From an uncultured Candidatus Woesearchaeota archaeon (GTDB lineage Archaea; Nanobdellota; Nanobdellia; UBA10117), in the NCBI GenBank assembly GCA_903864915.1, contig CAIPHS010000007.1, positions 15,146 through 79,145 on the forward strand: a stretch of DNA of 64,000 nt, given 5' to 3'. The translations under genes were made by a program, and so were the position numbers. The number at the start of each line of letters is the position of its first letter. The first letter of the stretch is position 1. Below the pieces are notes generated by a model, which was not told where the DNA came from, searched no databases, and saw only the letters and a list, made by a program, of their open reading frames with translations. Of the stretch, positions 55,695 through 60,324 are shown in pieces.

Positions 55695-55772
55695 CTTCGA
55701 CTTTCACCTTTGAAACCAGCGAAATCCGCGAGGATTTCAGCGCGTTTCATCTTCGATTCCTATGAGCTTGAG

Positions 55773-55856
55773 TGCGGGAGACAGGGTTCGAACCTGTGTA
55801 CCCACTAAGGGACACGACCCTCGATCGTGCGAGTTTGACCGCTCCTCCACTCCCGC
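55773..55856 (-). tRNA. tRNA-Leu (anticodon GAG), class II with long variable arm
   Basis: Acceptor GCGGGAG/CTCCCGC. Anticodon arm CACGA-TCGAGGG-TCGTG. Variable arm. T-arm ACAGG-TTCGAAC-CCTGT. Discriminator A. Confidence 0.75.
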
Positions 55857-59354: not shown

Positions 59355-59480
59355 CGCCGAGGCTGGGATTTGAACCCAGACACCCTTGCGGGAACAAGCT
59401 CTCGAGACCTTATTCCAGGCGTACGCTCGTTTTAATTTCTTAAAAACGATTTGCGCGCTACCAGGTTACGCGACCTCGGC
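59355..59480 (-). tRNA. atypical tRNA-like gene (126 nt; intron-containing or degenerate; anticodon not assignable)
   Basis: Perfect 7-bp acceptor GCCGAGG/CCTCGGC. D-arm GCGT-AACCTGGTA-GCGC. T-arm CTGGG-TTCAAAT-CCCAG. Discriminator G. About 52 extra nt including a CGTTTT-TAAGAAATT-AAAACG hairpin. No contiguous 5-7-5 anticodon arm. Confidence 0.5.
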
Positions 59481-59496
59481 ATGCCTAACGGGTATT

Positions 59497-60225
59497 TTAG
59501 CCAGTTAAAAGACTTTCTTTCAGTCTTAAATATTTAACTTTGTGATTCAAACCTATTTCATTCAGAAATTTCTGTCTGCTCTTTTTCATAGATATTATCA
59601 AGATATGATTAACCGACCATTTTGGATTTTTGGGCGAATAACTATATATTTTAGATTCGATATGAAATAAAGACAAAAGTTTCTGTACATCTCGAATGCC
59701 TTTTTCATTTACGGTTTGCACCCTAATAACTTTACTAGTTATGTACCCTTCGGCATCAAAAAAAGCTCTTAGCCATTCCTTCAGCAATTGCTTACTATTC
59801 ATAATAAAACTCGGTATAGACCAGGTTTTAACACCAAAAGCAGCGTGTTTGAGTAAATCTTCGACCACTATTTTTGAATTAAAACGAACACTATAGAAAT
59901 TATTATGTTCTCTAATTGTTGGGGCTATATTATAAACTGTTTTAAGTGCGGCTATGAACGGCGATAACAATGATGAATGATCTGGATAAAACCCCACCTC
60001 ATTATGAAAACCGCGACCTTTCTCTTCGCGAATACCAACGTGACCATCACCTGCTAAATATCCAAATACTAGAGCTTTAAGACGTAATTTATTTTTAGAA
60101 TTATTATTTATCCGCGCTCGCTCTTTGGCTTGGCGTTTTTGCCAGTATGCAAGAACATTAGCTCTATTCCTCTCTCTAAATCGCATCTGATTATTAGGAA
60201 GGCGCAGTATTTTAATATAGCGCAT
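59497..60225 (-). CDS. double-motif LAGLIDADG homing endonuclease
   Basis: VFGYLAGDG (motif 1) and LRAFFDAEG (motif 2) about 95 aa apart. 242 aa. Confidence 0.65.
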   Translation of the reverse strand: MRYIKILRLPNNQMRFRERNRANVLAYWQKRQAKERARINNNSKNKLRLKALVFGYLAGDGHVGIREEKGRGFHNEVGFYPDHSSLLSPFIAALKTVYNIAPTIREHNNFYSVRFNSKIVVEDLLKHAAFGVKTWSIPSFIMNSKQLLKEWLRAFFDAEGYITSKVIRVQTVNEKGIRDVQKLLSLFHIESKIYSYSPKNPKWSVNHILIISMKKSRQKFLNEIGLNHKVKYLRLKESLLTG

Positions 60226-60265
60226 TACCAGCGAGTTAAGAAATTAATACTCAACAAAGTCGAGA

Positions 60266-60287
60266 TACCAGGTTATGCGACCTCGGC
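60266..60287 (-). repeat. 22-nt partial copy (21/22) of the tRNA-like 5' end (GCCGAGGTCGCATAACCTGGTA)
   Basis: Direct repeat of 59459..59480, flanking the homing-endonuclease gene on its upstream side. Confidence 0.7.
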
Positions 60288-60324
60288 ACAACATTACGTT
60301 CTAAAATCTGTTTAAAAGTCTTAT

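Follow-up and report, generated by a model that had tools for sequence, protein, structure and literature searches.

A LAGLIDADG endonuclease gene between a displaced tRNA-Ser remnant and an intron-bearing tRNA-Ser(GGA) gene: a probable homing cassette in Woesearchaeota

The stretch of DNA analysed here, referred to as the window, consists of 64,000 nt of the Woesearchaeota contig CAIPHS010000007.1, from a tiny groundwater archaeon. Near one end of it a LAGLIDADG endonuclease gene lies between a partial tRNA-Ser sequence and a complete tRNA-Ser(GGA) gene that is interrupted by two introns, the first of the bulge-helix-bulge (BHB) type and the second probably so. Together these elements have the appearance of a homing cassette which has invaded a resident tRNA-Ser gene. 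An initial annotation had pointed out a repeated 22-mer, a LAGLIDADG open reading frame (ORF) and a tRNA-like gene, and all three are present at the coordinates it gave. All elements of the cassette are on the minus strand; in the order of transcription they are as follows.

60308..60318, minus strand: promoter-like box CTTTTAAACAG, assigned to the resident tRNA gene; it comes right after the stop codon (60325) of a peptidyl-prolyl isomerase (PPIase) gene and precedes the 22-mer by about 30 nt
60266..60287, minus strand: resident tRNA-Ser remnant, part 1, the 22-mer GCCGAGGTCGCATAACCTGGTA (positions 1-21/22), with a 21/22 match to the working tRNA
60232..60265, minus strand: 34-nt insert within the remnant, with likeness to the D-loop intron of the related locus L069
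60220..60231, minus strand: resident tRNA-Ser remnant, part 2, CTGGTAATGCGC (3' part of the D-loop, 3' strand ATGC of the D-stem, G26 and C27), at which the remnant ends
60208..60219, minus strand: TATA-like box TATATTAAAATA, probable endonuclease promoter, at a position before the ATG that is shared with relatives
59497..60186, minus strand: predicted LAGLIDADG endonuclease gene, 229 amino acids from M14 (the longest ORF opens at 60225)
59504..59513, minus strand: promoter-like box GTCTTTTAAC, assigned to the working tRNA and contained in the final codons of the endonuclease gene
59451..59480, minus strand: tRNA-Ser(GGA) exon 1, positions 1-29 (Rfam, 35.7 bits; intron-less homologues)
59421..59450, minus strand: intron 1, 30 nt, at the non-canonical position 29/30 (BHB geometry)
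59413..59420, minus strand: tRNA exon 2, positions 30-37, GCCUGGAA, with the anticodon GGA at 59414-59416 (ARAGORN and homologues)
59401..59412, minus strand: intron 2, 12 nt, at the canonical position 37/38, probably a relaxed BHB (ARAGORN, i(37,12))
59355..59400, minus strand: tRNA exon 3, position 38 through discriminator G73, to which the long variable arm and the T arm belong (Rfam, ARAGORN and homologues)

The tRNA-like gene (59480..59355, 126 nt) scores 35.7 bits against the Rfam tRNA model, for which the gathering score is 29. The acceptor, D and T arms, which the initial annotation had described as perfect, align with the model, leaving a middle part of 67 nt unaligned. Removal by hand of nucleotides 31-60 and 69-80 of the 126-mer yields an 84-nt tRNA with the anticodon stem CAAGC/GCUUG, the loop CUGGAAA and a long variable arm. 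ARAGORN recognizes the spliced 84-mer as tRNA-Ser(GGA) with a clean cloverleaf and, when intron 1 alone is removed, reports Ser(gga) with a 12-nt intron, i(37,12). An aberrant gene with about 52 extra nucleotides and no foldable anticodon arm had been described; the extra length is real, but because the tRNA is an 84-nt class II tRNA-Ser it amounts to 42 nt, divided over introns of 30 and 12 nt, and with both introns taken out the anticodon arm is normal. Judged by its in silico splicing and its homologues, the gene is a class II tRNA-Ser(GGA) gene with two introns, a BHB intron and a second, probably relaxed BHB intron. Neither ARAGORN in default mode nor the Rfam fast-filter pass at the gathering threshold calls it. 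The Rfam pass over the whole window also skipped a tRNA-Leu gene (55772-55856) that ARAGORN calls.

When species-representative genomes were scanned with the sequence of the variable and T arms, 87 tRNA-Ser loci from Woesearchaeota and related Nanoarchaeia were obtained; these and the other loci compared here are labelled with L numbers. Many of the 87 loci are intron-less 84-nt genes, for example L033, L049 and L070, which match the spliced tRNA of the window in the D arm, anticodon arm, variable arm and T loop and differ in the acceptor and T stems by paired changes. Both inserts are present, without an endonuclease, in L024, L045, L047, L048, L059, L074, L077, L083 and L094. Intron 1 occurs alone in L022 and L008 and intron 2 alone in L069, from which it follows that the two inserts are separate. 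A single 42-nt intron with the anticodon CGA, obtained as a hand model and also by ARAGORN -i on the precursor, was rejected: no BHB can be drawn for it, and it disagrees with the relatives that have one insert only as well as with the intron-less CAAGC-CUGGAAA-GCUUG genes.

Intron 1 has the core features of a BHB motif: a 4-bp central helix formed by GCGC (positions 24-27) and GCGU, two 3-nt bulges on opposite strands (AA|A and AC|G), in each of which the predicted cut follows the second nucleotide, and a 7-bp inner hairpin. In 45 homologous introns at 29/30 or 30/31 all four pairs of the central helix are formed in 40, with compensatory changes (GCAC/GUGU, CGGC/GCCG, CGUC/GACG), and an inner helix of 4 bp or more is formed in 34. 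Intron 1 does not have the strict hBHBh' form: the outer helix on the exon side is almost absent, with 0-1 bp in most of the 45 introns. This is a relaxed form, which the splicing enzyme of the host must tolerate. Intron 2 uses the anticodon stem as its outer helix and, drawn by hand, forms three of the four central pairs, with the 5' site in the loop. Its cut sites are ambiguous by 1-3 nt, and the alternatives leave G37 rather than A37. Inserts of 12-44 nt with the same relaxed geometry are present at 37/38 in relatives and are typical of the clade. A second class II tRNA with a 42-nt anticodon-loop insert is present in L001 (6340-6462), about 2.5 kb downstream of the tRNA-Ser and after S13-S4-S11-RpoD; intron-bearing tRNAs appear to be common in the clade.

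The only long ORF (at least 50 amino acids) on the minus strand between the two tRNA copies, 60225..59497, matches Pfam LAGLIDADG_3 with an E-value of 5.7e-19 and 68.6 bits (cut-off 22.5). An alignment of 18 sequences shows the catalytic residue D60 of motif 1 (GYLAGDG) to be invariant, D157 of motif 2 (FFDAEG) to be nearly invariant, and the catalytic residue 159, a glutamate in the window protein, to be E or D in 18/18 sequences. A family profile retrieves PI-PfuI (2e-15) and I-DmoI from the Protein Data Bank (PDB). The AlphaFold2 (AF2) model, with a mean predicted local distance difference test (pLDDT) score of 91.6, is matched by Foldseek to PI-PfuI (E-value 6e-12) and to I-DmoI (template-modelling (TM) score 0.77, normalised to the target). 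The AF2 model, Foldseek and Pfam agree on the pseudo-dimeric alpha-beta-beta-alpha-beta-beta-alpha fold, in line with the double-motif LAGLIDADG protein proposed initially. On profile, motifs and model, the product is a two-motif monomeric LAGLIDADG endonuclease like I-DmoI, with cleavage activity as a prediction. Homologues of the ORF bear Woesearchaeota names, and the endonuclease is recorded in annotation as hypothetical or as "WhiA". The ratio of nonsynonymous to synonymous substitution rates (dN/dS) between the gene of the window and its 76%-identical counterpart in L001 is 0.22.

Translation probably starts at M14, the second ATG, at 60186, because most homologues start there, gene callers give 229 amino acids, and the TTAAAATA box sits 29 nt upstream. 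The same box lies 29 nt before the ATG in L002, and boxes resembling a TFB recognition element plus TATA box (BRE/TATA), GAAAcATTTAAATA, occupy the corresponding place, about 25-30 nt before the ATG, in many relatives. The region of the TATATTAAAATA box is presumably the endonuclease promoter. A sequence upstream of the L002 endonuclease, "GGGTTAAAATAC", had been considered as a T-arm fragment and was rejected, being the conserved TTAAAATA box. Before the tRNA, the sequence AAAG(N)CTTTTAA is found at the same position in the window, L001 and L002, while a shorter CTTTTAA core precedes the tRNAs of L056 and L069, two loci without the homing endonuclease gene (HEG). The box GTCTTTTAAC is, we infer, the promoter of the working tRNA. 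The endonuclease is encoded neither in an intron nor in an intein: its ORF ends 16 nt upstream of the first nucleotide of the tRNA, and the introns of 12-30 nt are non-coding.

The upstream 22-mer (60287-60266) agrees with the start of the working tRNA (59480-59459) at 21 of 22 positions, and 100 shuffles of the window gave no such match. The initial annotation had described a 22-nt near-copy; the agreement of 21/22 is confirmed, but the sequence derived from a tRNA is longer than 22 nt. Past the 34-nt insert the remnant resumes as CTGGTAATGCGC, a local match to tRNA positions 17-27 that is conserved in L001, and so reaches position 27. An independent metagenome assembly in ENA contains the two 22-mers 807 nt apart in the same arrangement, which therefore is not an assembly artefact. 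Eight metagenome contigs encode exactly this protein.

The origin of the remnant is indicated by L056, a syntenic HEG-less locus with a PPIase 77% identical to that of the window. In L056 the PPIase stop codon is followed by the box CTTTTAAACAGA, tRNA-Ser exon 1 and a D-loop intron of about 115 nt. The 22-mer is identical to this exon 1 at 22/22 positions, and the promoter box of the window is identical to the L056 box and occurs in the same place; the CTTTTAAACAG box, we infer, is the promoter of the resident tRNA gene. The D-stem halves of the remnant, GCAU/AUGC, pair perfectly, those of the working copy being GCGU/GCGC; the remnant thus represents an A12/U23 allele and the working copy a G12/C23 allele. 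The self-matched D-stem and the identity to L056 show that the 22-mer was not freshly copied from the gene downstream. A fresh local duplication was rejected also because the two copies have different spacers between box and tRNA start, and because the A12 allele fits L056 and pairs with U23. The comparison of alleles identifies the upstream piece as a displaced 5' portion of the resident tRNA gene that still occupies its original site; the downstream tRNA, the G12/C23 allele, appears to have arrived with the endonuclease. The sequence TAATTTC(C)TTAAC...GG.AATGCGC is common to the 34-nt insert and the 3' part of the L069 D-loop intron. The insert is probably what remains of a D-loop intron in the resident gene; as it cannot be drawn as a BHB, the support for the intron reading is moderate. 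The arrangement is not that of a split, trans-spliced tRNA of the Nanoarchaeum type, the downstream gene being complete. A pairing reminiscent of split tRNAs, between 60236-60250 and the intron 1 hairpin (59429-59443; inverted, 14/15), was dismissed, being absent from L001 and within the chance range for AT-rich DNA.

Remnants of this kind recur in the family. Sequences matching the 5' part of the spliced tRNA are found within 130 nt upstream of the endonuclease in 24/56 loci, compared with 3/48 in an adjacent control region, and end at about Sprinzl positions 21-31, most of them at 24-29. After them comes a BRE/TATA-like box. Differences between remnant and working copy are compensated within each copy in L155 (G4 vs A4/U69), L006 (GCCGCGA vs GCCGCCA/UGGCGGC) and L160. 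In L162 both sides are preserved: the 5' remnant GCCCACATGCGACAATGGTACTCGG (1430-1460, positions 1-26) and a 40-nt 3' remnant (2285-2326), from the variable arm to ...CGTGGGCG, stem from one resident allele and flank the endonuclease and a complete tRNA of another allele, with only the anticodon arm of the resident gene missing. Exact copies of 14-16 nt of the tRNA 3' end are present 45-100 nt downstream of the working tRNA in L008 (3378-3392), L160 and L167 (in the latter two at about 100 nt), and could be 3' remnants or duplications of the kind seen with T-loop introns. Upstream of the endonuclease in L003 (2975-2990), L008 (2265-2285) and L009 (2368-2435) the sequence (G)CACTGGACA occurs two or three times; candidate explanations are a D-arm remnant that has decayed (CTGGTAC) and a binding site.

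The link between endonuclease and tRNA-Ser holds throughout the family. In six homologues with 35-76% identity, which represent five neighbourhoods, the ORF is followed immediately by the same tRNA-Ser. A metagenome scan that used protein patterns alone found 214 relatives and returned 80 loci, which together with earlier look-ups and two genome loci make up 94 HEG loci. At 92 of these a tRNA-Ser starts between -63 and +42 nt from the stop codon, and at the remaining two the stretch available downstream is too short. The tRNAs were identified with a structural heuristic; six further ones were recognized by Rfam and the rest, mostly genes with T-loop introns, by visual inspection. The anticodons are mostly GGA, with some CGA or UGA. 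In the commonest layout the ORF extends 15 nt into the tRNA and stops at the TAA of the D-loop. More than 20 relatives (L006, L102, L108, L110, L114, L122, L126, L130, L131 and others) end their ORF in this way (GCATAA), and in these the overlap of coding and tRNA sequence implies that the tRNA promoter must lie within the ORF. The initial annotation had considered LAGLIDADG genes at tRNA loci rare in archaea; this does not apply to the present lineage, in which the whole family is tied to tRNA-Ser. Some linked tRNA-Ser genes, partly from marine lineages (L003 3776-3960, L105, L113, L132, L137), contain a further large T-loop intron. Those of L003 and L105 also have a 13-nt intron at 8/9, which the upstream remnants of L003, L103 and L112 are without.

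The distribution is sporadic, like that of a mobile element. Only 2 of the 87 tRNA-Ser loci of species-representative genomes have the endonuclease, at least six different gene neighbourhoods are represented, and the gene is absent at the syntenic loci L046, L056, L069 and L080, relatives as close to the window as the HEG-bearing L001 and L002. The tRNA is intron-less in L046 and L080 and has a D-loop intron in L056 and L069. Linked tRNAs have introns at positions 25-31 more often than unlinked ones (34/60 vs 11/75, p = 4e-7) and are less often free of introns (8/60 vs 32/75, p = 3e-4), in statistics that ignore phylogeny and take the HEG-less set from a sequence-pattern search. The stronger rule that every linked tRNA has an intron between positions 20 and 30 was true for the first seven loci and was abandoned, the figure for the family being 40/60. 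Unlinked 29/30 introns have the ends AUC...GAGCGUA in common with linked ones, a likeness partly forced by structure.

The genes around the cassette are archaeal housekeeping genes, encoding ribosomal proteins S11, S4 and S13, Cbf5, a methyltransferase with Trm112, the PPIase and a flavoprotein resembling geranylgeranyl reductase. The GC content is lower across the cassette.

Taken together, these data make it probable that a homing cassette which cuts cassette-less tRNA-Ser alleles has invaded a tRNA-Ser(GGA) gene at this locus, cleavage, splicing and mobility being predictions from sequence. The mobile unit would consist of the endonuclease promoter, the endonuclease gene, the tRNA promoter in its 3' end and the replacement tRNA-Ser, placed in the resident tRNA-Ser at about position 27. 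The enzyme would cut cassette-less tRNA-Ser genes in or near the anticodon arm (about positions 27-44), a target suggested by the part missing between the two L162 remnants and by the point at which most 5' remnants stop. The break would then be repaired from a cassette-bearing genome, with the displaced 5' remnant as left homology arm and the tRNA body, or the 3' remnant in some lineages, as right homology arm, and in the process the endonuclease, the replacement promoter and the replacement tRNA would all be copied. Introns in this tRNA may break the presumed recognition site of about 20 bp and render the carrier immune, while the tRNA splicing endonuclease of the host would take them out of the RNA; the excess of introns at positions 25-31 in linked tRNAs supports such a role. 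Recombination between remnant and working copy could afterwards remove the endonuclease, so that a tRNA with its 29/30 intron stays behind; the shared ends of the unlinked 29/30 introns are compatible with this route to an intron allele without HEG. That the cassettes of this family are a source of non-canonical BHB tRNA introns, by insertion into the anticodon-arm region with a replacement tRNA whose 29/30 introns (and those at 37/38 or in the D-loop) block re-cleavage, and by later deletion of the endonuclease, which would leave an immune gene, is a more tentative proposal, which we regard as possible but rather doubtful.

Several observations weigh against active homing by this mechanism. 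The target site is deduced only from the end positions of remnants, the homology arms are short (20-60 nt), and the 8/60 linked tRNAs without introns indicate that intron immunity is not universal or the sole route; the limits of the intron statistics given above apply here too. Within the clade of the window the endonuclease has diverged (76% and 60% identity) about as much as the housekeeping neighbours (62-80%). Such divergence and the dN/dS together agree with a long vertical retention of the gene, which may serve the host instead of homing actively. The L001 copy, moreover, could not home by the proposed route because the first part of its remnant is gone.

The homing cassette may be compared with the three explanations offered in the initial annotation. 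Insertion of an endonuclease gene with partial target duplication comes closest, although the "duplication" turns out to be the displaced 5' part of the resident A12 allele and the downstream gene a different, complete allele. A non-canonical intron carrying the endonuclease is borne out in so far as introns exist at 29/30 and 37/38 and the remnant ends at or just before 29/30, but the endonuclease gene lies outside both. The third, a degenerate tRNA used as attachment site, finds no support in a gene that splices in silico to a perfect tRNA-Ser(GGA). As findings that would speak against its view, the initial annotation had named BHB introns restoring a normal anticodon arm along with an unrelated 22-mer, or a protein without LAGLIDADG fold; such introns were indeed found, whereas the 22-mer proved truly tRNA-related and the fold was confirmed.

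Among rival explanations, the one with most in its favour, though still unlikely, is that the LAGLIDADG protein has been domesticated as a host factor beside tRNA-Ser, either as a WhiA-like regulator of the embedded tRNA promoter or as a helper in intron processing, the remnant being an old scar. The low dN/dS, the vertical retention in three syntenic genomes with a divergence like that of neighbouring genes, and the tRNA promoter box inside the ORF would all be expected; in addition WhiA is among the Foldseek fold matches (rank 38), and one source names P0002 as WhiA. However, unlike in WhiA, both catalytic acidic residues are kept across the family, and a host function is difficult to combine with the absence of the gene from most genomes that have the same tRNA, including equally close syntenic relatives, with its occurrence in many unrelated neighbourhoods but always with the tRNA, or with flanking remnants of different alleles. 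Less probable again is integration by an integrase, in which the repeated 5' part of the tRNA would be the attL/attR of a pNOB8-type element and the LAGLIDADG gene its last surviving cargo. The architecture, a 5' fragment, an element and a reconstituted tRNA with an extra intron near the crossover, is as described in PMC3293823, and in L006 (465-2328) and L007 (208-1399) a tyrosine integrase lies just upstream of the remnant, in L006 along with a pilin/TrbC-like gene of a type IV secretion system (T4SS). At these two the same tRNA-Ser locus may also have served an integrative element. But the span from remnant to tRNA (about 0.75-0.8 kb) holds the LAGLIDADG gene alone, with no recombinase inside it; the integrase of L006 is outside the repeat pair, and none was called beside the endonuclease in the other loci whose gene content was inspected. 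The direct tRNA repeat (21/22) consists of different alleles instead of identical att cores, and its upstream member extends further.

Nearly as improbable is a giant intron, in which the upstream fragment would still serve as exon 1 and a BHB intron of about 840 nt would contain the endonuclease gene and a spare exon 1, so that long and short precursors are both spliced. LAGLIDADG genes are well known from BHB introns of archaeal rRNA, most remnants stop at the 29/30 splice site or shortly before it, and many keep nucleotides 24-27, which form the central BHB helix. Yet the remnant of the window lacks positions 28-29 and contains the 34-nt insert without a drawable BHB, its A12 mismatches C23 of the downstream exon, the CCUG/CUGG at the two junctions cannot pair, and the L001 remnant is truncated; the downstream gene, moreover, is complete and has its own promoter box. 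The chance proximity of an ordinary intron-bearing tRNA to an unrelated endonuclease gene, with the 22-mer as a random or assembly repeat, has nothing but the small size of the repeat to recommend it, and is excluded for practical purposes by the shuffles, the independent assembly and the linkage over 94 loci. The homing cassette thus is the reading we prefer.

Because default tRNA finders miss the gene, genomes of this kind would seem to be without tRNA-Ser(GGA), and routine annotation under-counts their tRNAs. If the homing cassette is real, the family would be the first of archaeal homing endonucleases aimed at a tRNA gene, and would show that in nature, too, a nuclease can move together with a rescue copy of the essential gene it targets, a copy resistant to cleavage. 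Such a cleave-and-rescue element would provide a mechanism at the DNA level for the gain of tRNA introns, and would make both the origin of non-canonical archaeal tRNA introns and their protective role against mobile elements directly testable. The enzymes would in that case also be new meganucleases with targets of about 20 bp in a conserved gene. In the full-text literature, with subscription journals outside the coverage, no account was found of a link between LAGLIDADG genes and tRNA-Ser in archaea. Both the anatomy and the linkage throughout the family are solid, and they appear not to have been reported before.

Several known systems share features with the present one. Archaeal rRNA BHB introns carry LAGLIDADG genes, and the enzymes from such introns, I-DmoI and I-Tsp061I, are similar in fold, in the two-motif monomer, in their archaeal host, in a conserved stable-RNA target and in the association with BHB introns. 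Their genes, however, are situated within the rRNA intron, whereas the gene described here lies between a displaced 5' remnant and a complete tRNA copy, in a cassette equipped with a promoter and a replacement gene. In cyanobacteria, tRNA-fMet genes can contain a group I intron with a homing endonuclease gene. Such introns have also been described in tRNA genes of Patescibacteria (PMC13011429). These bacterial introns resemble the present system in linking an endonuclease to an interrupted tRNA gene, in ultra-small, genome-reduced organisms, but they are self-splicing with the ORF inside, in contrast to protein-spliced BHB introns of 12-30 nt with the ORF outside. A gene outside any intron or intein and beside tRNA genes is that of the free-standing SegB of phage T4, located in a tRNA gene cluster, which cleaves the allele without itself and thereby achieves preferential inheritance of itself and the flanking tRNA sequence (PMC2330249). 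SegB, however, is a GIY-YIG enzyme of a phage, with no displaced gene fragment, no intron-bearing replacement gene and no BHB splicing. For the tRNA-Thr(GGU) locus of Caldiarchaeum subterraneum, Sugahara et al. (2012) proposed an integration of the pNOB8 type, with an intron that guards against re-invasion (PMC3293823). There, too, a tRNA 5' fragment, a mobile element and a reconstituted tRNA with an extra non-canonical intron near the junction are found, and the mobility gene adjoins the tRNA on the same strand. The differences lie in the enzyme, here a LAGLIDADG endonuclease that would act by double-strand break and repair, not a tyrosine recombinase, in the size of about 0.8 kb, and in the diverged alleles without att core. 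In synthetic cleave-and-rescue drives a nuclease destroys the resident essential gene and is linked to a cleavage-resistant rescue copy. The proposed cassette would follow the same logic but is natural, uses a protein-guided meganuclease and concerns a tRNA, with resistance presumably provided by introns or allele differences. By analogy, the system would act in the manner of a free-standing homing endonuclease and would share with integrative elements that target tRNA genes a layout by which the gene is restored.

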